NCBI GenBank assembly: GCA_041686345.1
Contig: JAWLEA010000001.1
Location: 20,516-84,515, forward strand
DNA from: Polyangia bacterium
GTDB lineage: Bacteria; Myxococcota_A; Polyangia; HGW-17
Direction of reading: 5' to 3'
DNA: 64,000 nt
Shown here: positions 21-63,709 of the stretch, piece after piece
Numbering within the stretch: the first letter of the stretch is position 1
How the letters are laid out: each line of letters begins with the position of its first letter
The notes under the pieces: model-generated
Databases searched by the model: none
What the model was told of the DNA's origin: nothing
What the model saw: the letters and a program-made list of their open reading frames with translations, nothing else
Translations under genes and position numbers: made by a program

Positions 21-171
21 GTTCCCATCCCAAAAATGGATGTCATCGTCTGGCAACGGAAATTGGATTAATCTGCTTTGTCATAACTTTTTGAAATAGT
101 GTCAACTATGTCTGCAAAGTTATTCCGCGCATCTCAATCCAATTTCTTCCCCAGCCAAAAACCCCACTTCT
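21..171 (+). mobile_element. MITE-like ~162-bp interspersed element, copy A (right terminal inverted repeat missing)
   Basis: nt 21-171 align with the other copies (GTTCCCATCCCAAAAATGGATGTCATCGTCTGG...CTTTTTGAAATAGTGTCAACTATGTC...CCACTTCT). The final GGGATGGGAAC is absent and the sequence continues TATTTAGCGG into the stop codon of the adjacent CDS. Confidence 0.8.
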
Positions 172-8159: not shown

Positions 8160-9488
8160 ATGAACAAAATTCTACTTGTAGCTGACGACAGTAAAACAAT
8201 AAAAAAAGCATTTGAGTTGAGTTTCACCGGCAAGGATATCAAACTTGTTTTTGCAAATGATGGTCAATCTGCTTTGATGAAGGCAAAAAAACAAAAGCCG
8301 GGGGTTGTAATTGCCGACCATAAATTGCCGGGTTTAAACGGTTATGATCTTCTTTCTGAAATGAAAAGAGAATCAGGATTGGGAAAAATTCCCTTCATCA
8401 TAATGCACAGTCATTACCAGGAATTTGATGAGATCAAAGGTGTCGGTGCAGAAGCTCATATTGCCAAGCCATTTTTAACCAAGGATATTCATGAAGTTGT
8501 GGATAAAGCTTTTGAAGTGGCCGAATCAGGAGAGGCCGAGGAAGATGTAGAACAGGAAATAGTCATAGATGCTGAATTTCCAGATGAAGAAGAAGCACCT
8601 GACGAACTCGAACTACAATTTGAAAATATTGGATTGAAAAAGGAACCAGATGTAATATCACCTGCATCCAAGCCTGCTCGATCGTCCAAGCCGGCAGCCC
8701 CAAAAAAGCCTGCCCGCCCGTCGGTACCTCGTTCGTCCAAGCCGGCAGCCCCAAAAAAGCCTGCCCGCCCGTCGGTACCTCGTCCGTCCAAGCCGGCAGC
8801 CCCAAAAAAGCCTGCCCGCCCATCGGTACCTCGTTCGTCCAAGCCGGCAGCCCCAAAAAAGCCTGCCCGCCCATCGGTACCTCGTTCGTCCAAGCCGGCA
8901 GCCCCAAAAAAGCCTGCCCGTCCGGCAGTACCTCGTCCGTCCAAACCGGCAGCTCCAAAAAAGCCTGCCCGCTCGGTAGAATCAGGAATATCCAAAGAGG
9001 AAAAGGCTCAATCCAGTTTTGCGCCACCTCCATCCCGACCTGTTAAACCAAAAGCTCCCAAGTCAACAAAACCCGGAGTTCCTGAAAAACAAAAACAGGA
9101 AGAATCAGGCAAGCCTTTTGTTTCTTCCGATAAATTTAAAAAGTCAAGCAAAACTGCCAGCGCAGGAACCAAAAAATCAGGAGGCGGACAAACAGTATTC
9201 ATGTCCTCTTTTGCACCTGAACCTGCCCAGGATGCTTCAACTTCCGAAAAGAGTTCCCAAACTTCAGAAAATCAGCAGATTAAAGAAAAAGTTGTTCAGG
9301 ATACCCAAAAGCAGGTTAAAGGAATTGTTGATCGGAAGGTCAGGGAAATATCGGCCCAAGGTGAGGAATTCAAAGCAATAGCCAACTTGAGTAGAGATAT
9401 CATCGAAAAAATAGCTTGGGAAGTAGTTCCTCAGTTAGCCGAAGTAATTATCAAGGAAATTGCAGTTAAGGACAAGCATCTCAAATAA
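8160..9488 (+). CDS. Response regulator with receiver domain, long Pro/Lys-rich repeat linker and conserved C-terminal tail (RomR-like architecture)
   Basis: CheY-like N-terminus (ILLVADDSKTIKK...DHKLPGLNGYDLL...IAKPF), six SKPAAPKKPARPSVPR units, and a C-terminal IEKIAWEVVPQLAEVIIKEI. RBS GAGGAAATAA precedes the ATG. Confidence 0.75.
   Translation: MNKILLVADDSKTIKKAFELSFTGKDIKLVFANDGQSALMKAKKQKPGVVIADHKLPGLNGYDLLSEMKRESGLGKIPFIIMHSHYQEFDEIKGVGAEAHIAKPFLTKDIHEVVDKAFEVAESGEAEEDVEQEIVIDAEFPDEEEAPDELELQFENIGLKKEPDVISPASKPARSSKPAAPKKPARPSVPRSSKPAAPKKPARPSVPRPSKPAAPKKPARPSVPRSSKPAAPKKPARPSVPRSSKPAAPKKPARPAVPRPSKPAAPKKPARSVESGISKEEKAQSSFAPPPSRPVKPKAPKSTKPGVPEKQKQEESGKPFVSSDKFKKSSKTASAGTKKSGGGQTVFMSSFAPEPAQDASTSEKSSQTSENQQIKEKVVQDTQKQVKGIVDRKVREISAQGEEFKAIANLSRDIIEKIAWEVVPQLAEVIIKEIAVKDKHLK
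8685..8972 (+). repeat. 48-bp in-frame tandem repeat, about 6 units (SKPAAPKKPARPSVPR)
   Basis: The unit TCCAAGCCGGCAGCCCCAAAAAAGCCTGCCCGCCCGTCGGTACCTCGT(T/C)CG repeats head to tail with only a few substitutions. Confidence 0.9.
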
Positions 9489-12882: not shown

Positions 12883-13069
12883 ATTTTCCTGCAGGCTTTT
12901 TCAAGTGTTTGAAAGTTATTTTTATTGTTTTTCCTTTTAAAACCATCAAATAAATTGTACAAACAGGGTTTGAAATACCTTTGTATCTACCTGTTTTATC
13001 AATTGGATTCTGACCTTAGTTTTTTTAAATTTAATCAATCAGAATCAGTTTATTAGAGAAATCAAGAAT

Positions 13070-16736: not shown

Positions 16737-16898
16737 GTTCCCATCCCAGAAGTGGTATTATTGGCTGGGGAAGAAATTGGATTGAGATGCGCGGAATAAC
16801 TTCGCCGACATAGTTGATACTATTTCAAGAAGTTATGACAAAGCAGATTAATTCAATTTCCGTTTCCAGACGATGACCTTCCTTTTGGGGACGGGAAT
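16737..16898 (-). mobile_element. MITE-like element, copy B (full length, inverted orientation)
   Basis: The reverse complement aligns end to end with copies C-G. Its ends are GTTCCCATCCCAGAAGTGG...GGGGACGGGAAT. It lies 43 nt upstream of the eno start codon. Confidence 0.9.
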
Positions 16899-23497: not shown

Positions 23498-23619
23498 GGT
23501 CTGAATTTTTATTTCTATTGGGTAAAATGGCAATAGAAAAATAAAAAAAGAAGATTTTTTTTAAAAAAATTCGATAATAAATATGTGAATACGAAAAATT
23601 TAAAAACAGGAACTATTTA

Positions 23620-23781
23620 GTTCCCATCCCAAAAATGGATGTCATCGTCTGGCGACGGAAATTGAATTAATCTGCTTTGTCGTAACTTCTTGAAATAGTG
23701 TCAACTATGTCTGCGCAGTTACTCCGCGCATCTCAATCCAATTTCTTCTCCAGCCAAAAAACCCACTTCTGGGATGGGAAC
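23620..23781 (+). mobile_element. MITE-like element, copy C (full length, perfect 6-bp flanking duplication TATTTA)
   Basis: GTTCCCATCCCA...TGGGATGGGAAC termini, with TATTTA immediately on both sides. Confidence 0.92.
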
Positions 23782-23810
23782 TATTTAAAATTTTGAAAAC
23801 GGAGTTGAAG

Positions 23811-24428: not shown

Positions 24429-25196
24429 ATGAAAACCAAATTACTTTCTATCTTAGCAATTTCAGTATTTTTTGTTTTTGCTGCCTGTGATGACGACGAT
24501 GACAGCAACAACACCACCAACAATATCAATAATGCCGAATGTGGCAATGGTATAGTTGAAGCCGATGAAGTATGTGACGGCACTGCTCTTGACGGTGAAG
24601 ATTGCACAACTATCGGCGATTATACCGGTGGTGAACTTGCCTGTGCAGCAGATTGTTCTGCCTTTGACGAGTCAGGTTGTACCGCCAGCACTAATAATGC
24701 CGAATGTGGCAATGGTATAGTTGAAGCCGGTGAAGTATGTGACGGCACTGCTCTTGACGGTGAAGATTGCACAACTATTGGCGATTATACCGGTGGCGAG
24801 CTTGATTGTACAGACGATTGCTCTGCCTTTGACGAGTCAGGCTGTACTTCTGATGCAACTCCGACTCCCGACGGATTTGTCGGTTCAAGTTGTGCCGATG
24901 CCGCTGATTGTACCGAAGTTGAAGCTGTTGCAAACCTTACCGCTGAATGTGTACAACAAATTGCAACCTTTACCTTGCAAGATGGTTATTGCTCTTCAAC
25001 ATGTGATCCAACTGCCGATCCCGATCCCTGTGTCGATGCGGATGGTGAATGTGTAGATGTTATGGATATGGGAACTTATCAGTATTGTCTGCAACCATGT
25101 GTTCCAGGAAATAATGAATGTCGCACAGGTTACGAGTGTGCTGCTTTTTCCCAGGAAACTGATGCTCCTACTTATTGTCTCCCACCCATGAAATAA
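24429..25196 (+). CDS. Secreted Cys-rich lipoprotein with Myxococcus-type cysteine-rich repeats
   Basis: Signal plus lipobox VFFVFAAC, followed by DDDDD. There are two units ECGNGIVEA(D/G)EVCDGTALDGEDCTTIGDYTGGEL.C..DCSAFDESGC and a Cys-rich C-terminal domain. RBS AGGAG is present. Confidence 0.75.
   Translation: MKTKLLSILAISVFFVFAACDDDDDSNNTTNNINNAECGNGIVEADEVCDGTALDGEDCTTIGDYTGGELACAADCSAFDESGCTASTNNAECGNGIVEAGEVCDGTALDGEDCTTIGDYTGGELDCTDDCSAFDESGCTSDATPTPDGFVGSSCADAADCTEVEAVANLTAECVQQIATFTLQDGYCSSTCDPTADPDPCVDADGECVDVMDMGTYQYCLQPCVPGNNECRTGYECAAFSQETDAPTYCLPPMK
24528..24852 (+). repeat. 165-bp in-frame direct duplication (2 units)
   Basis: The units begin at 24528 and 24693 (AATAATGCCGAATGTGGCAATGGTATAGTTGAAGCC...). 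The first ~110 nt are almost identical between units. Confidence 0.85.
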
Positions 25197-26614: not shown

Positions 26615-26776
26615 GTTCCCATCCCAAAAATGGATATAATCGTCTGACGACGGAAATTTGATTAATCTGCTTTGTCGTAACTTCTTGAAATAGTGTCAAC
26701 TATGTCGGCGCAGTTACTCCGCGCATCTCAATCAAATTTCTTCCCCAGTTAAAAACACCACTTCTGGGATGGGAAC
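26615..26776 (+). mobile_element. MITE-like element, copy D (full length)
   Basis: Canonical termini. The flanking hexamers are TAACCA / TAACTA (5 of 6 identical). Confidence 0.9.
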
Positions 26777-26868: not shown

Positions 26869-27030
26869 GTTCCCATCCCAAAAAGGAAGGTCATCACCTG
26901 AACGCGGAATTTTATCTCATCAACTTTGTTGTAACTTCTTGAAATAGTGACAACTATGTCTGCGAAGTTATTCCGCGCATCTCAATCCAATTTCTTCACC
27001 AGCCAAAAACCCCACTTCTGGGATGGGAAC
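26869..27030 (+). mobile_element. MITE-like element, copy E (full length, variant left internal module)
   Basis: Canonical termini and a perfect flanking duplication TAGTTA. The internal left segment reads GGAATTTTATCTCATCAAC instead of GGAAATTGAATTAATC. Confidence 0.9.
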
Positions 27031-38733: not shown

Positions 38734-38819
38734 GTTCAGAATGGGAGTTATTGATTGAAACTGAAGTTGGATTGAGATGCACCTGGCAACATCGCAGATA
38801 GTTCTTGCTCAACGGGAAC
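38734..38819 (-). mobile_element. Degenerate, internally deleted MITE-like copy J
   Basis: GTTC-AGAATGGGAGTTATTGATTGAAACTGAAGTTGGATTGAGATGCAC...GCAGATAGTT...AACGGGAAC aligns with the inverted orientation of copy B but has deletions. Further end-like debris (ACGGGAAT / GTCGTCCCAAAATGG) lies at about 38990-39040. Confidence 0.6.
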
Positions 38820-39947: not shown

Positions 39948-40046
39948 CTTCGTAGACTGCTGTTCCCATCCCTGGCAAAATTACTTTTCATATCCCAATC
40001 TTCCCCTTAAGCCGAGGATTTCGTTTTAAGCCATTAAATCAGTGAT

Positions 40047-40853
40047 TCAGCGACATAATTGTCTTTTTTTCCAGGAGAGGGTTCCCTTCCAGCAACTGTA
40101 GACTTTCTTTACCCCATCCTCTTCATCCTCCTCTTCATCTTCTTTATCCTCTTCATCTTCTTTATCCTCTTCATCCTCTTCATTCTCATTATTTTCTTCT
40201 TCTTTGTTTTTCCGGCTGTCAGTTTCAAACATTTCAACTTCAGATGATTCAGAAGGTATGCCTGGTTCTTCACTTGTATCAACATTGGTATCATTGGTGG
40301 TATCAACTATTTGTTCAGAAGCATCCTGGGTGGGTTCAGGTTCAGGTTCGATTATCTCTGAACGACATTCATTCCAGGCCCATTTTTCAGGTTGACCACA
40401 AGAAGGAATTTTCTGCGAAGATGAAATATCCCACCCCGATGCCAGTTTACAGCCTTTGTTGTCTTCTTGCAGACGGCAAAAAGCCCTGGTGGAATGACGA
40501 ATTGTTTCTTTGCCGTCACAGTCAAAATCAAAACTGCCGTTTTTCCTGGGTCTGGAAAAATAACTCTTTTGCTGGGGATGAACTCTGGAATCGTTGTCGT
40601 CACAATCTCCACTTTTATTTACATAATTCTCAAGTTGTTGGCACGAGATTTTGGAAACTTTGGAATTACCCCAACCATCACCGTCTTTATCCAGATAGAA
40701 TTTTTCTTTATGCTTACAGGAACGGGAATCTACCGATTTTTTGTTTTTGAATTTTGCCAGGAGATGCTTGTCTTTCCTTTGCAAGCTTGAAGGAGAACTT
40801 TCACAACTCCAGATTGCAACTGTTAAGAACAAAAACAAGATAAAGCGCAACAT
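40047..40853 (-). CDS. Cys-rich lipoprotein with MopE-like putative metal-binding motif and poly-acidic C-terminal tail
   Basis: The ATG at 40853 lies 1 nt after the bamB stop. Lipobox VAIWSC. Motif DKDGDGWG...SGDCDDNDSRVHP. The tail reads EEENNENEEDEEDKEDEEDKEDEEEDEED. The track ORF extends further upstream over bamB and that extension is rejected. Confidence 0.65.
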   Translation of the reverse strand: MLRFILFLFLTVAIWSCESSPSSLQRKDKHLLAKFKNKKSVDSRSCKHKEKFYLDKDGDGWGNSKVSKISCQQLENYVNKSGDCDDNDSRVHPQQKSYFSRPRKNGSFDFDCDGKETIRHSTRAFCRLQEDNKGCKLASGWDISSSQKIPSCGQPEKWAWNECRSEIIEPEPEPTQDASEQIVDTTNDTNVDTSEEPGIPSESSEVEMFETDSRKNKEEENNENEEDEEDKEDEEDKEDEEEDEEDGVKKVYSCWKGTLSWKKRQLCR

Positions 40854-40854
40854 G

Positions 40855-41982
40855 TCAAGATATTTTAAACAGATAGATACTGCCGTTGTTGAGTAGAGCG
40901 GTGATGAAATTATTGAAAACTCCAAAGTTGGAGGAGATTCCATCTCCGGGATCGAAGCGTTGATAGAAAAAGCCGTTATCTGGATTAAGGGCAATAATTC
41001 CCCCTTTGTCAAAAGGAATAATCATTCTTTTACCCTTGATGATAATTTTTCCCGGGGTGCCAAGATCGATATTTTGTCTCCAGATCAGTTTTCCTGAAGT
41101 ATCAAGACAGTGGATTCCCTTGCTGGGGGAAACAAAATAAATTTTATCTTTGTGCAGAGTAATGGAAGTAATTCCGTAAGCACGATAATTCCAGATCAAT
41201 TCTCCGGTCTTTTTATTGAGAACACAGAGGCCTTTGTTGTAAGAAGCAGTGTATAATTTGTTTCCTTTGATAACAGCATCTGTATCCGCATCGATGTAGT
41301 TTTCTTGATTGGGATCTTCGAGAGCTTTTTTCCAGATGGTTTGTCCTCTTTTTTGCAGATCAACGGCCAGAATTTGACCGTCGGAAAGTCCCATGAAAAG
41401 ATGATTTTTATCGATAACAGGGGAGGAATGTCCTCGTACTGTGTAGCCATCTACTGTTTCATTGCGTTTGCTCCAGTGCAGGGAACCGTTGTCAACAGCT
41501 ATGGCATAGAGCATATTTCTGGCAGTGGTTATGTAGACGACTCCATTACTATAGACAGGTTTGCCCAGAAAAGCACCATAACCCTGAAATTTCCATTTCT
41601 TTTTGCCGGTTTTTGCATCAATTCCATATAATTCTCCACCGATAGTTCCTGCAATAATCAAATTAAATTGTTTGAGATGCAAAGGAGCGGAATTGATGGA
41701 AGTTTTCAGATTTGCCTTCCAGAGAGTTTGTCCTTTGAGATTGAAACAGAATAACTTGCCTTCAGAAGTACCAGTAATAATTCGTTTGCCTTTCTTATCA
41801 AAAACAGGCGTGGAAAACTCTTCATTCTTTTGGCTGAAACGCCGATGCTTGACCAAATTTTTTTTCCAGAGAGGAACCATAACCTTTCTCGGACTTACTT
41901 CTCCGTTTCTGACCTTGTGCATGGTGGGTGAAACGCAAGAATTTAAGAGAATCAGAGTTATGAAGGGAATTAAATATTTCAT
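40855..41982 (-). CDS. bamB: Outer membrane protein assembly factor BamB-like (PQQ-type beta-propeller lipoprotein)
   Basis: Lipobox LILLNSC. Repeated G.LY..D..TGK..W propeller motifs. It lies downstream of a YfgM-like gene, as in E. coli yfgM-bamB. Confidence 0.75.
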   Translation of the reverse strand: MKYLIPFITLILLNSCVSPTMHKVRNGEVSPRKVMVPLWKKNLVKHRRFSQKNEEFSTPVFDKKGKRIITGTSEGKLFCFNLKGQTLWKANLKTSINSAPLHLKQFNLIIAGTIGGELYGIDAKTGKKKWKFQGYGAFLGKPVYSNGVVYITTARNMLYAIAVDNGSLHWSKRNETVDGYTVRGHSSPVIDKNHLFMGLSDGQILAVDLQKRGQTIWKKALEDPNQENYIDADTDAVIKGNKLYTASYNKGLCVLNKKTGELIWNYRAYGITSITLHKDKIYFVSPSKGIHCLDTSGKLIWRQNIDLGTPGKIIIKGKRMIIPFDKGGIIALNPDNGFFYQRFDPGDGISSNFGVFNNFITALLNNGSIYLFKIS

Positions 41983-43149: not shown

Positions 43150-43244
43150 GTTTCCGTTCCAAAAATGGATGTCATCGTCTGGTGACGGAATCTGGCATTA
43201 TCAGTTTCTTCACCAAACAAAAACACCGCTTCTGGGATGGGAAC
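43150..43244 (+). mobile_element. MITE-like element, copy F (95-bp internal-deletion derivative)
   Basis: It keeps the left arm GTTTCCGTTCCAAAAATGGATGTCATCGTCTGGTGACGGAA and the right arm TTTCTTCACCAAACAAAAACACCGCTTCTGGGATGGGAAC. The central ~80 bp are replaced by TCTGGCATTATCAG. Confidence 0.85.
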
Positions 43245-43423: not shown

Positions 43424-43586
43424 GTTCCCATCCCAAAAATGGATGTCATCGTCTGGCGACGGAAATTGAATTAATCAGCTTTGTCCTAACTTCTTGAAAT
43501 AGTGTCAACTATGTCTTCGCAGTTATTCCGCGCATCTCAATCCAATTTCTTCCCCAAGCCAAAAACACCACTTCTGGGATGGGAAC
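43424..43586 (+). mobile_element. MITE-like element, copy G (full length, perfect flanking duplication TAAATA)
   Basis: Canonical termini with TAAATA on both sides. The right-hand TAAATA is also the left flank of copy H. Confidence 0.92.
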
Positions 43587-43592
43587 TAAATA

Positions 43593-43748
43593 GTTCCCGT
43601 CCCAAAAATGGATGTCATCGTCTGGCGACGGAAATTGAATTAATCAACTTTGTCCTAACTTCTTGAAATAGTGTCAACTATGTCTTCGCAGTTATTCCGC
43701 GCAGTTGAGACAAACTTCTTCACCAGTTAATAACCCCACTTCCGGGAC
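43593..43748 (+). mobile_element. MITE-like element, copy H (variant right internal module, degenerate right end)
   Basis: It starts GTTCCCGTCCCAAAAATGG 6 bp after copy G. The right part reads GCGCAGTTGAGACAAACTTCTTCACC...CCACTTCCGGGAC, followed by AGTTAAAATA. Confidence 0.85.
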
Positions 43749-47571: not shown

Positions 47572-48756
47572 ATGAAATTCAGCAAATGGCTTGTTTTTGC
47601 AATTTTGGGATTTGTTATCTCAGCTTGTGCAGGGACAGAACTAGAAGGTAAAGCCCAAGTTGTTTCCAAACTTATTAAAATTGCCGAAAAAAATGGAGCT
47701 TACAAGTGTGCTCCCAAACAACTGGCTCTTTCCAAAACCCATCTTGAATTCAGTCTTGATGAGATGAGCCAGGGTAAAATGTTCAAGGCAAAAAATCTGT
47801 TAAAAACCGCTGATCAAGCAGCCCGATTGGCTATCAAAAAGTCTCCTCCCGAAAAATGCGCCAAAAAAGTTATTGTAGCCACCGAACCGGAAAAGAAGCC
47901 GGTAAAATTATCAGTTAAAGTAACTGATTCTGACGGCGACGGCATTCCTGACAGCAAAGACAAATGCCCCAATAAACCGGAAGATTTTGATGGTTTCGAA
48001 GATAAAGACGGCTGTCCCGACAAGGACAATGACGGCGACGGTATTGCCGATTCTGTTGACAAATGTCCGGGCAAAGACAAAGACAAAGAAAATAATTTCA
48101 AAGATGTAGCCGAAGATATAGATGGTTTCGAAGATAAAGACGGCTGTCCCGACAAAGACAATGACGGCGACGGTATTGCCGATTCTGTTGACAAATGTCC
48201 GGGCAAAGACAAAGACAAAGAAAATAATTTCAAAGATGTAGCCGAAGATATAGATGGCTTCGAAGATGATGACGGCTGTCCTGACAAGGACAACGACAAA
48301 GACGGTATTCCCGATGTCAAAGACAAGTGCCCCAACAAGCCCGAGGTATTCAACGGTTATCTTGATAAAGACGGTTGTCCCGACAAATTGAAACTTATCA
48401 AAATTACCAAAAAGAAAATTGAATTGAAGCAGAAAATTTTCTTTGCCTACAACAAGGCCAAGATTCGCAAAAAAAGCTATGGTTTGCTCAATGAAATCTA
48501 CAAAGTCCTCAAGTCTCGTCCATCCATGAAGATCATGATTGAGGGTCATACCGATTCCGATGGCTCCGCCAGTTACAATCGTCGCCTTTCACGGCGCAGA
48601 GCCAGAGCAGTACGCAAGTATCTGATCAAAAAAGGTGTCGATCCATCCAGAATGAAGTCTGTCGGTCGTGGTGAATCCAAACCAATTGCTTCCAACAAAA
48701 CCAAAGCTGGAAAAAGCAAAAACAGACGAGTAGAATTTGTAATAACCAAACAATAA
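47572..48756 (+). CDS. OmpA-family lipoprotein with thrombospondin type-3 (calcium-binding) repeats
   Basis: Lipobox FVISAC. Repeated D.DGDGI.D..DKCP / DKDGCPD units. The C-terminal OmpA domain reads IEGHTDSDGSASYNRRLSRRRARAVRKYL...NRRVEF. Confidence 0.88.
   Translation: MKFSKWLVFAILGFVISACAGTELEGKAQVVSKLIKIAEKNGAYKCAPKQLALSKTHLEFSLDEMSQGKMFKAKNLLKTADQAARLAIKKSPPEKCAKKVIVATEPEKKPVKLSVKVTDSDGDGIPDSKDKCPNKPEDFDGFEDKDGCPDKDNDGDGIADSVDKCPGKDKDKENNFKDVAEDIDGFEDKDGCPDKDNDGDGIADSVDKCPGKDKDKENNFKDVAEDIDGFEDDDGCPDKDNDKDGIPDVKDKCPNKPEVFNGYLDKDGCPDKLKLIKITKKKIELKQKIFFAYNKAKIRKKSYGLLNEIYKVLKSRPSMKIMIEGHTDSDGSASYNRRLSRRRARAVRKYLIKKGVDPSRMKSVGRGESKPIASNKTKAGKSKNRRVEFVITKQ
47989..48252 (+). repeat. 132-bp in-frame tandem duplication (2 near-identical units plus a diverged third)
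   Basis: The units start at 47989 and 48121 (GATGGTTTCGAAGATAAAGACGGCTGTCCCGAC...). I see one difference in 132 nt (AAG/AAA). The encoded 44-aa unit is DGFEDKDGCPDKDNDGDGIADSVDKCPGKDKDKENNFKDVAEDI. Confidence 0.9.
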
Positions 48757-50584: not shown

Positions 50585-50629
50585 AAAAATATGGTTTCAT
50601 TTGTAGATTTATCAAATCCGGATGGGAAC
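50585..50629 (+). mobile_element. Fragment of the MITE-like element (right end only), copy L
   Basis: ...TAAAAATATGGTTTCATTTG...CCGGATGGGAAC is followed by TAACTA, the same right flank as copy D. It lies 20 nt upstream of the next ATG. Confidence 0.5.
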
Positions 50630-50649
50630 TAACTAACACAGGAAATAAA

Positions 50650-52237: not shown

Positions 52238-52400
52238 GTTCCCTATCCCAAAAATGAATGTCATCGTCTGAATACGGAAATTCATCTCATCAGTTTTGTC
52301 ATAACTTCTTGAAATAGTGTCAACTATGTCTGCGAAGTTACTTCGCGCATCTGAGGCAAACTTCTCATTCAGCCAAAAACCCCCATTCTGGGATGGGAAC
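52238..52400 (+). mobile_element. MITE-like element, copy I (full length, both internal modules variant)
   Basis: GTTCCCTATCCCAAAAATGAATG...TTCTGGGATGGGAAC. The flanks are TGGATA / TAGATA (5 of 6 identical). It has a left module as in copy E and a right module as in copy H. Confidence 0.9.
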
Positions 52401-54130: not shown

Positions 54131-54408
54131 TTGTATTCTTGATTTCATAATTTCCCATAATTACCAAATTTTTTCATAATTTCCCATCTTCTCAGTTTAT
54201 AACCCCCATTCTTAAAAATTTTGTTTTGAAACTTGACTTATCGTCAACCATGTTTAGTTTAATTTCAGAAAATAAATACTCTAATTAATGTTGGGTATTA
54301 TACTGATAATTAAGAAGATTTATAAATTTATCAGATTTTGCGGGAAGTTGAATCTGATTACTGAATAACAAAAATAAGTTCCAATTGGAACAATATGGAG
54401 GATTTTTT

Positions 54409-56385
54409 ATGGGAAAAATTATTGGCATAGACTTGGGTACTACAAATTCCTGTGTTTCAGTAATGGAAGGTAAAGAACCAAAAGTAATTCCAAATGAAGA
54501 AGGGAACAGAACTACCCCTTCAGTAGTTTCTATCGACAGCAAAGGTGAAAAACTGGTGGGACAGATAGCCAAAAATCAGGCAATAACCAATCCTGAAAAT
54601 ACAGTTTTTTCAATCAAACGTTTTATGGGTCTCAGATATGATGAGGCTCAAGATGAAATAAAGAAGATAACCTACAAGGTTGTGAAGACTTCCAACAACG
54701 GGCTCAGGATTAAATTACACGACAAGGAATATGCAGCCCCCGAGATCAGTGCCAGAATTTTGATGAAACTCAAAAAATCAGCCGAAGAATATCTGGGAGA
54801 AGAAGTTAAGGAAGCTGTTATTACCGTTCCGGCTTATTTCAATGATTCTCAGAGACAGGCAACCAAAGATGCAGGTCAGATCGCAGGTCTTGAGGTAAAG
54901 AGAATAGTCAATGAGCCTACAGCGGCAGCTTTAGCCTACGGGCTTGATAAAAAAGACGAACAAATAGTTGCTGTTTTCGACTTTGGTGGCGGTACTTTTG
55001 ATATTTCCATTCTCGAAATTGGCGAAAATGTGGTTGAAGTTATTTCCACCAATGGTGATACCCATCTTGGTGGTGACGATATAGATCGCAAGATCATCGA
55101 TTATCTTCTGGCAGAATTCAAAAAAGAAAAAGGTATTGATGTTTCTGAAGACAAGATGGTTCTTCAGCGTCTGAAAGATGAAGCTGAAAAAGCCAAAAAA
55201 GAACTTTCAGTTAGAGAAGAAACAGAAATAAATCTTCCCTTCTTTACTCAGGGACCGTCGGGACCAGTTCATTTCAAAAAGAAACTCAGCAGAGCCAAAT
55301 TGGAAAATCTGATCTCGGATCTGGTGAACAGGACAATCGCACCTTGTAAAACAGCCTTGAAAGATGCCAAGAAAAAAATATCAGATATCAGCCAGGTCAT
55401 TCTGGTTGGCGGCTCAACCAGAATCCCTCTGGTTCAGAAAAAAGTTAAAGAATTTTTCGGCAAAGATCCCAGCAAGGGAGTAAATCCCGACGAGGTTGTG
55501 GCCAAAGGCGCAGCAGTCCAAGCCGGAGTTCTTTCAGGTGACGTCAAGGATATTTTGCTTCTGGATGTAACTCCGCTGAGTCTTGGAATTGAAACTCTCG
55601 GTGGTGTTATGACCACTTTAATTGAGAAAAATACTACAATTCCCGCCAAGAAAAGTCAGATTTTCAGTACCGCAGCTGACAACCAACCTTCGGTTGAAGT
55701 ACATGTTCTTCAGGGTGAAAGACCAAAAGCCAAAGACAATCGTACTCTCGGAAAATTTCATCTGGATGGAATTCCACCAGCACCCAGAGGTGTCCCTCAG
55801 ATCGAAGTTATTTTCGACATTGATGCTAATGGAATTTTGAATGTATCAGCTGTAGATAAAGCCACTAATCGCAAACAACATATTACCATTACAGCTTCTT
55901 CCGGACTTGATGAGGATGAAATTGAGAAGATGGTTGAAGAAGCTGAAATGCATAAAGATGAAGATGAAAGATTGCGAGAATTGATTTCCGCCAGAAATGG
56001 TCTGGAAAACCTGATCTATTCACTTGAAAAATTAATCAAAGAAAATAGTGAAAAACTTCCTGAAGATCAGAAAAAAGCTGTTGAAGAAGAACTGGAAAAA
56101 GCACGCACTACCTTAAAAGAAGACCGTGATGATCTGGAAAAACTCAAGGCGGCTCAGGAAAGCCTGAATGAAAAAGCTCAGGAAATGTCCAAAGTAATGT
56201 ATCAAGCAGCCGGAGGAGCACCGGGAGCCGGAGGAGCACCGGGAGCCGGAGGAGCACCGGGAGCCGGAGGAGCACCGGGAGCCGGAGGAGCACCGGGAGC
56301 CGGAGGAGCACCGGGAGCCGGAGCCGGTCAATCAGGTTCTTCTGACGATGATGAAGTGATTGATGCTGAATTCGAAGAGGAATGA
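54409..56385 (+). CDS. dnaK: Molecular chaperone DnaK (Hsp70)
   Basis: Motifs [17 protein letters not shown] and [10 protein letters not shown], with a C-terminal tail ...[13 protein letters not shown]. The ATG at 54409 follows GGAGG. Confidence 0.95.
56209..56322 (+). repeat. 18-bp in-frame tandem repeat x6 (GGAPGA) in the dnaK 3-prime region
   Basis: GCCGGAGGAGCACCGGGA is repeated six times without substitutions. Confidence 0.9.
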
Positions 56386-59049: not shown

Positions 59050-59180
59050 ACTCGGATTCTGCCGAATTATTTTTTCTCACCTGATTTTTCATCAATAAAA
59101 CAGATCTTGCAGGGGTTTTGCATATCCCAGAATATTTGCTGATTTAAAAATTATAATTTCAAACAGACGGGGTTAGTTTG

Positions 59181-59231
59181 GACGCATTTCAATCCAGCTT
59201 CTTCCCAAGCCTATAACCCCTATTCTGGAAC
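59181..59231 (+). mobile_element. Fragment of the MITE-like element (right half, degenerate), copy K
   Basis: GGACGCATTTCAATCCAGCTTCTTCCCAAGCCTATAACCCCTATTCTGGAAC aligns with CCGCGCATCTCAATCCAATTTCTTCCCCAAGCCAAAAACACCACTTCTGGGATGGGAAC of copy G. Confidence 0.6.
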
Positions 59232-63187: not shown

Positions 63188-63709
63188 ATGTCTGCATCAG
63201 AACCCCGAATAATTAAGCGTTATGCCAACCGAAAGCTCTATGATACTGTCGATAGTCAATATATTACCTTAAAGACCATATCTGAATTAATAAAGAAAAA
63301 CAATATGGTACGCATTATCGATAATGATTCTGGAGAAGATCTCACCCGTGATTTTTTGTTGCAAATCATCAGAAAACAGGAAAAAAAGTGGAAACTTTTT
63401 CCTTTGCAGTCTCTGGTTCAGATGATTAAAATGGGGCGTACTTCCTCTAACGATTTTCTTCATAATTTAAAAAGTGATATGGATCTGAGAATGGGGGACA
63501 TACCAAAAATCAGTGATCTCAAAGAAGCCATAGAAAATTACCAAAGAAGATTTGAAGAGTGGCAGAAAAATATTGAAAATCAGCTTCATACAATTCTGGA
63601 AGCTCCCAGTACTTTGTTGTCAAAAGAAATAGATTTCATGAAAAAGAGATTGATTTCTCTTGAAGACAAGGTACAGGAATTAAAAAATAAAATAGAAAAG
63701 AACAACTAG
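63188..63709 (+). CDS. PhaR-like protein (polyhydroxyalkanoate synthesis regulator N-terminal DNA-binding domain)
   Basis: IIKRYANRKLYDTVDSQYITLKTISELIKKNNMVRIIDNDSGEDLTRDFLLQII matches the PhaR N-terminal signature. The C-terminus is coiled coil. Confidence 0.7.
   Translation: MSASEPRIIKRYANRKLYDTVDSQYITLKTISELIKKNNMVRIIDNDSGEDLTRDFLLQIIRKQEKKWKLFPLQSLVQMIKMGRTSSNDFLHNLKSDMDLRMGDIPKISDLKEAIENYQRRFEEWQKNIENQLHTILEAPSTLLSKEIDFMKKRLISLEDKVQELKNKIEKNN

Follow-up and report, generated by a model that had tools for sequence, protein, structure and literature searches.

A 162-bp hairpin-forming MITE family that shares its ends and target-site duplication with ISDol1-group insertion sequences

The window analysed here, by which we mean the whole stretch of 64 kb, is prokaryotic in character, with densely packed ORFs, ~39% G+C and three tRNAs. 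It contains nine copies and three fragments of an element of ~162 bp, every one of them intergenic, which together make up ~2% of the sequence. The initial annotation had proposed this repeat family, and a repeat finder, alignment and an nhmmer profile recovered it at the places given there: all copies from A to I are present, with coordinates that are exact or off by a few bases. Copies B, C, D, E, G and I have their full length. Fragments J and K were retained with shifted bounds, and the proposed fragment L (50585-50629) was reduced to a 12-nt remnant of the right end. The copies and their immediate flanks are listed below, where the + orientation of copy C runs from the IRL-like to the IRR-like end.

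23620..23781, + strand: copy C, 162 bp, full length; nhmmer 189 bits over model positions 1-162
23614..23619: left target-site duplication of copy C, TATTTA
23782..23787: right target-site duplication of copy C, TATTTA
23606..23613, + strand: ACAGGAAC, 8 nt resembling the right end of the element, directly before the left duplication of copy C
21..171, + strand: copy A, without the right 11 bp (GGGATGGGAAC)
16737..16898, - strand: copy B, full length, inverted
26615..26776, + strand: copy D, full length; TAACCA/TAACTA
26869..27030, + strand: copy E, full length; TAGTTA/TAGTTA; 47 bp upstream of glnA
43150..43244, + strand: copy F, 95-bp derivative with an internal deletion, both ends kept
43424..43586, + strand: copy G, full length; TAAATA/TAAATA; first of a head-to-tail pair
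43593..43748, + strand: copy H, second of the pair, with the hexamer TAAATA common to G; right end decayed
52238..52400, + strand: copy I, full length, left end with a 1-nt insertion; TGGATA/TAGATA; 136 bp upstream of an ECF sigma factor gene
38736..38805, - strand: fragment J, model positions 82-153; nhmmer E ~1e-6
59168..59229, + strand: fragment K, model positions 95-154; nhmmer E ~1e-6
50618..50635, + strand: fragment L, 12-nt right-end remnant CCGGATGGGAAC (50618-50629) followed by TAACTA

The terminal inverted repeat extends over the proposed 12 bp, GTTCCCATCCCA/TGGGATGGGAAC, with 12 of 12 positions paired perfectly and a column identity of 94% over the 64 full-length copies aligned (see below). 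At up to two mismatches, the terminal 12-mer matches the window 21 times, a number that none of 100 shuffled sequences reaches (6.65 +/- 2.5 matches). The flanking hexamers previously assigned to copies C, E, G, D and I are correct, and the difference between copies C and G, put at about eight positions, comprises seven substitutions and one indel. The central block had been described as invariant; it is strongly conserved, with a mean column identity of 93% compared to 79% in the mid-arms, but not strictly so, and the core as originally defined is matched within two substitutions in 53 of the 64 copies. The element has no coding capacity, and only a mechanical ORF of 52 aa runs across copy C. 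Genes that have a copy upstream in the window encode a UPF0102 protein, GlnA, enolase, a 7TM-HD protein and an ECF sigma factor.

Further repeats of other kinds occur within ORFs of the window. Six to seven tandem 51-bp repeats (8626-9023) lie in an ORF (8160-9488) with an N-terminal response-regulator receiver domain, and three tandem 132-bp repeats (47980-48375) lie in an OmpA-family ORF (47572-48756) with thrombospondin type 3 repeats. A perfect 18-bp tandem repeat, AGCCGGAGGAGCACCGGG, at 56190-56333 encodes a Gly/Ala/Pro-rich tail at the 3′ end of dnaK (54385-56385). Two ORFs that gave no Pfam match also carry repeats: a 155-bp direct repeat, 93% identical, at 24528-24847 in a Cys-rich secreted or lipoprotein-like ORF (24429-25196), and a 9-bp periodic repeat at 40098-40211 that encodes an acidic Glu/Asp/Lys run in ORF 40047-41012.

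We scanned the 22-nt core of the element over one genome per species and obtained at least 58 loci. Among the 58 loci listed, 57 derive from a single metagenome-assembled genome, 'Deltaproteobacteria bacterium GH18' (JAQICJ01), which hence carries at least 57 loci; the sole match listed from elsewhere, in a cyanobacterial MAG (L002), is a chance match to the 22-nt core without element ends and was set aside. An nhmmer search over the window and the 58 loci yielded 106 non-redundant matches, 64 of them full length, with a divergence among copies of 5-20%. The window and GH18 represent distinct genomes that are syntenic at 79-92% nucleotide identity. Since the GH18 loci were chosen for carrying the element, the densities observed there are not genome-wide values. 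With a simple ORF caller, no ORF contains any of the 63 scorable copies, and the genes on either side of these copies are arranged divergently in 16 cases, convergently in 10 and in tandem in 37. Orientation shows no significant bias with respect to neighbouring genes (tandem, 23 vs 14; transcription entering from the right vs the left, 33 vs 24) and none with respect to GC skew (41 vs 34), so the 8:1 excess of + copies in the window is a local feature. Viral contigs contained no match to the core, and the end pattern occurs in them five times, by chance and with no partner end.

The initial annotation interpreted the flanking hexamers as 6-bp target-site duplications and pointed to empty-site comparisons as the check. 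Two orthologous sites in the window and GH18 provide this comparison:

12984..12989: empty site in the window, lone TATCTA; the GH18 site (L025 1303-1418) reads TATTTA, a 98-bp deleted copy, TATTTA
63703..63708: empty site in the window, lone CAACTA; the GH18 site (L006) holds a full copy between TAACTA hexamers

At both sites the empty allele carries a single hexamer and the occupied allele carries two, as expected if insertion duplicates the hexamer; the second site overlaps the stop codon of ORF 63188-63709. The statistics over the 64 full-length copies agree with this result. The flanking hexamers are identical in 30 copies, and the central dinucleotide of the TANNTA pair is identical in 41 copies, compared to 14% in a control in which hexamers were paired across different copies; the duplication therefore spans 6 bp and extends beyond TA alone. 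A duplication of TA only, as produced by IS630-like elements, would require an empty site of 10 nt, TAnnTAnnTA, instead of the one hexamer observed. The commonest hexamers are TATTTA, TAGTTA, TAACTA, TAAGTA, TAAATA, TAGATA and TATCTA. About half of the hexamer pairs are imperfect, which fits decay at the 5-20% divergence observed between copies but may have other causes as well.

Comparison of the two genomes also shows that the element has been mobile since they diverged. At the site of copy B, GH18 (L025 5135-5295) holds a copy of a different subfamily in the opposite orientation at the same intergenic hexamer upstream of enolase; as the two genomes hold different subfamilies in opposite orientations, this hexamer was hit twice independently, and the site is a recurrent insertion hot spot. 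Insertion moreover often abuts the end of a resident copy in the same orientation. At least seven loci (the pair G-H in the window and L041, L046, L035, L012, L030 and L021) contain head-to-tail pairs that share a hexamer, and the partners belong to different subfamilies, so that they arose by separate insertion and not by tandem duplication. In 14 of the 64 full copies, the left hexamer is preceded by GGAAC, the sequence with which the right end of the element terminates. GTTCC follows the right hexamer in just five, of which four are full tandem neighbours and one is a remnant (L030). Some GGAAC flanks are clear remnants, as in L010, L033 and L006 (see below). Others extend over just 6-8 nt, ACAGGAAC before copy C being one example, and such short flanks, including that of copy C, may be what is left of lost neighbours or may be pseudo-ends to which the transposase is drawn.

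Three loci show mini-remnants beside an intact copy, in which two hexamers enclose no more of the element than its first 4-6 and last 8-10 nt: a 22-bp mini-element between two TAACTA hexamers in L010 (~421-450), the remnant GTTCCaaGCAGGAAC in L033 (~2958-2980) and GTTC in L006 (7466-7475). In appearance they resemble excision footprints or the products of extreme internal deletion. In L021 (5951-6274), two copies are joined by a 1-bp spacer in place of a hexamer; TATTTA/TATTTC flank the entire pair, as would be seen if it had moved as a single unit.

The initial annotation saw no transposase in the window. Accordingly, Pfam searches of 46 ORFs returned housekeeping families only, with no recombinase or integrase and no Y1/HUH protein among them, and tblastn with the partner transposase described below gave no match to an ISNCY transposase in the 64-kb window or in 378 kb of GH18 DNA. 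We searched the window and the GH18 loci for an autonomous copy by (i) solo ends, (ii) pairs of inverted ends at a distance of 300-6000 bp whose hexamers match and (iii) other repeats of at least 300 bp; none of them contains a longer element with the ends of the 162-bp repeat. An end-like 12-mer at window position 39962 adjoins housekeeping genes (BamB-like, TPR) and belongs to no insertion sequence (IS).

We then scanned a 21-nt end pattern over a metagenome collection, requiring TA before the end and KGG after it; because of this requirement, other families and ISs are missed. The 43 matches include four members of the window family, ~24 of another 162-bp element with the same ends and seven ends with an adjoining ORF of ~450 aa. 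The search for an autonomous IS with the same terminal inverted repeat, which the initial annotation had suggested, thus led to an IS with the ends GTTCCCATCCC... and a DDE transposase of ~450 aa. The protein matches Pfam DUF772 and DDE_Tnp_1, and over its full length the NCBIfam model NF033593 'ISNCY family transposase' with 449 and 436 bits (cut-off 325). More than 6,700 relatives of this transposase were found. One of them (P0088, 65% identical) occurs at seven places in one long-read assembly, always within a 1671-bp IS that starts with GTTCCCATCCCGAAATA and ends with its inverted sequence, and the duplications are perfect at all seven places (TAATTA three times, TATTTA, TAGTTA, and TAACTA twice). 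The IS of a second relative, P0078, is flanked by TAACTA/TAACTA. The P0078 element and an IS256-type (Transposase_mut) gene are immediate neighbours in several samples (L107-L110; GCA_964371655.1 and ENA contigs) and may form an IS nest. Seven further matches to the end pattern from Ga0058697/Ga0058698 (L065, L071, L073, L080, L082, L087, L104) read GGAG-TAGTTCCCATCCCAAAAGGGGAAC-TAAG; they share the pattern alone with the element and represent a repeat of possibly eukaryotic origin.

The closest proteins on annotated plasmids, at 48-50% identity, are named ISRm17 and ISRsp17 family by PGAP, and ISRm17 belongs to the ISDol1 group of ISNCY (PMC10194956). The ISRsp17 copy in a Sinorhizobium plasmid measures 1664 bp, has the ends GTGCCCGTCCA and is flanked by TAGCTA/TAGCTA. 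According to ISfinder, members of the ISDol1 group are 1.6-1.9 kb long and produce repeats of 6-7 bp. The ISs read here have lengths of 1662, 1664, 1671, 1683, 1685 and 1716 bp, and ten copies carry 6-bp duplications (L113-L119, L107/L108, L120). Their ends have GTTCCC(A/G)TCCC in common with the 162-bp element. The ends, stagger and target rule of the element are hence those of a known IS group. The samples in which IS copies were found gave no member of the window family. The interior of the element shows no resemblance to the IS ends read beyond ~12-30 nt, and the element is therefore not a simple internal-deletion derivative of these ISs. A junction of two IS ends is likewise unsupported, since IS ends pair for ~17 nt only and give no similar fold.

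The repeat is short and non-coding, has a terminal inverted repeat, is flanked by a duplication of fixed length for which empty sites exist, occurs in many polymorphic copies and shares its ends with an IS. We conclude that it is very probably a non-coding MITE family moved in trans by an ISDol1-group (ISNCY) DDE transposase, and the initial reading as a MITE is borne out by the empty sites, the dinucleotide statistics and the autonomous IS with the same ends and TANNTA duplication. A resident or visiting ISDol1-group transposase would bind both ends of the element and excise or copy it, a 6-bp staggered cut in a T-A-N-N-T-A target would allow its insertion there, and repair of the staggered cut would duplicate the hexamer. 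That no named family was recognized still holds as far as Rfam and the literature searched show. The 162-bp family is new; its kind and its parent IS group are known already.

A long hairpin had been claimed for the element, and folding yields z = -5.9 for the + strand and z = -10.2 for the - strand. In the alignment of 64 copies, 90.6% of cells are paired over the whole element length, compared to 34-47% in slid controls. Changes on both sides are found at 20 pairs, in 190 cells, a result that none of 500 shuffles reaches, and subfamilies differ by blocks of such compensatory changes in the mid-arms. Conservation is 93-95% at the ends, in the apical core and in the regions near nt 50 and nt 112, and 79% in the mid-arms. 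In 63 of the 64 copies the fold is better in the minus orientation, opposite to that of the initial annotation (means -67.6 vs -51.3 kcal/mol), and wobble pairs are distributed accordingly, with 463 G.U cells vs 77 A.C cells. Comparison with the IS ends shows that the strand with the better fold begins with the IRR-like end, which reads CCCAGAATGGGGGTTTTT. Compensatory changes thus maintain the hairpin, whose shape is unusually well conserved for an element of an otherwise ordinary kind, and its stability is much greater on the strand beginning with this end. We infer that it is selected in single-stranded form, most likely as RNA.

Two sister families share the ends of the element and not its interior. 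The first, f2, is present in 16 full copies in a GC-rich host of metagenome Ga0272441 (L066-L106; e.g. L074 10138-10467 and L078 9758-9919). Its hexamer duplications are perfect in 10 of the 16 copies (TAGGTA, TATCTA, TACGTA and others), and it includes a head-to-tail pair sharing a hexamer as well as GGGAAC or GGAAAC remnants before the left hexamer. The second, f3, is a single copy in SDBV01000227.1 (L093 3963-4124) and is AT-richer than f2. Both families have ~19 nt at each end in common with the window family, from which they differ in base composition and interior: interior similarity is detectable between f2 and f3 (z = 6) but not between either of them and the window family (z ~1-2.6). 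The length is nevertheless exactly 162 bp in all three families, and all three fold far better on the same strand (-77 vs -50, -113 vs -86 and -76 vs -52 kcal/mol for the window family, f2 and f3), with 7-12 wobble pairs on the better and 1-2 on the worse strand. They also have in common a small apical stem-loop and GATG at nt 50-53, which gives rise to a tandem GA/GA internal loop at nt 50-51 and 112-113 flanked by UGC/GCA. Such a common pattern is what would be expected of a fold under selection. The IS ends form no long hairpin of this type.

These properties raise the question of whether the unit is above all a gene for a structured RNA, or a regulatory RNA module, of ~162 nt that is read from the IRR-like end and is mobile only incidentally, with transposition as its means of spread and its hairpin serving, e.g., as a target of a double-strand RNase, as an mRNA stabilizer or processing site or as a regulator of the transposase. 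This reading is compatible with that of a MITE, and it draws on the stem kept by compensatory changes, on the concentration of wobble pairs on one strand, on the recurrence of the strand bias in f2 and f3, on the exact length of 162 nt shared by three families together with GATG and the GA/GA loop within UGC/GCA, and on the higher conservation of the ends, apical core and GA-loop region (93-95%) than of the mid-arms (79%). Several results weigh against it. In Rfam 15, the window reaches the gathering score at its three tRNAs only, the best match on the element being STAXI with 16 bits (gathering score 40.5; E = 0.22), and f2 returns miRNA-hairpin noise only. No sigma-70-like promoter is found in or at the element, and its orientation is independent of the neighbouring genes. 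The strand bias is no proof of RNA, because G.T wobble stabilizes single-stranded DNA as well, and many wobble positions are fixed in the family and may go back to a few ancestral events. On balance, we consider a primary role as an RNA module unlikely. Similarly unlikely is the broader proposal that the 162-nt hairpin is more than filler between two ends bound by a transposase, namely an old single-stranded module of conserved structure, made of RNA or folded DNA, which uses ISDol1-group transposases as its vehicle in distant bacteria; if it is true, the fold could be needed for mobilizing so short an element, or could act on the host or the transposase.

Two other routes of mobility were weighed against transposition by a DDE enzyme. 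The hexamer might be the crossover region of a tyrosine recombinase (Xer-like or Tn916-like) with the core site GGGAAC-TANNTA-GTTCCC, into which a circle integrates site-specifically. Head-to-tail pairs and remnants indeed form a perfect palindrome with a 6-bp spacer, the layout of simple sites of this class, and GGAAC stands before the left hexamer in the 14 copies noted above. However, elements with these ends encode a DDE transposase, and the window encodes no integrase. The hexamer, moreover, varies by site and yet is duplicated perfectly in seven of seven IS insertions, which a homology-dependent exchange would forbid and which coupling sequences of the Tn916 type would not yield; we regard this mechanism as very improbable. 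A long, extragenic, multicopy hairpin with strand-specific stem stability also recalls REP/REPIN palindromes spread by a RAYT (HUH) transposase, or a single-stranded-DNA mover of the IS200/IS605 type. Such elements have neither a target duplication nor terminal inverted repeats shared with a DDE IS, both of which are present here, and the missing Y1/HUH protein in the window as well as the unbiased orientation with respect to GC skew further reduce this reading to one that we consider hardly credible.

Assignment of the 162-bp family to ISDol1-group transposases would give this poorly described group a target rule, T-A-N-N-T-A with a 6-bp stagger, and a first set of dependent miniature elements. 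Within the lineage, the element likely matters for annotation, assembly breaks and gene regulation, since it makes up ~2% of the window and stands in promoter regions of housekeeping genes (glnA, enolase, ECF sigma factor). The conservation of the fold across families further offers a simple system in which to ask if selection acts on bacterial MITE hairpins at the level of RNA, of DNA or of neither.

Compared to the ISDol1 group, the MITE shows the same 6-bp T-A-N-N-T-A duplication and the same type of terminus, GTTCCC(A/G)TCCC in the metagenomic members and GTGCCCGTCC in ISRsp17, and its IRR-like end resembles the IRR of one metagenomic IS (L072) for ~28 nt. The ISs differ from it in their length of 1662-1716 bp and their transposase of ~450 aa, compared to 162 bp and no ORF in the MITE, and in ends that are complementary over ~12-17 nt only and form no long hairpin; the interior of the MITE is unrelated to them.

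Hairpin-forming MITEs are known from other bacteria, namely bcr1 in the Bacillus cereus group, ERIC/IRU in enterobacteria, Correia/NEMIS in Neisseria and RUP in pneumococcus. These are intergenic, multicopy elements of 100-170 bp with terminal inverted repeats, a short AT-rich duplication and a hairpin that comprises the whole element, and the window MITE resembles them in size, intergenic position, copy number, terminal inverted repeats, AT-rich duplication and full-length hairpin. For bcr1 and ERIC, structure at the RNA level has been argued from compensatory changes. We know of no report of exact length conservation across unrelated interiors for any of the four. Their ends differ from those of the window MITE, and the duplication is TA in ERIC/IRU, Correia/NEMIS and RUP and TTTAT in bcr1. 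RUP has been linked to the IS630 family; to our knowledge, no transposase has been assigned to most of these elements. The window MITE stands apart from bcr1, ERIC, Correia and RUP in its 6-bp TANNTA duplication and in a partner IS group that can be named.
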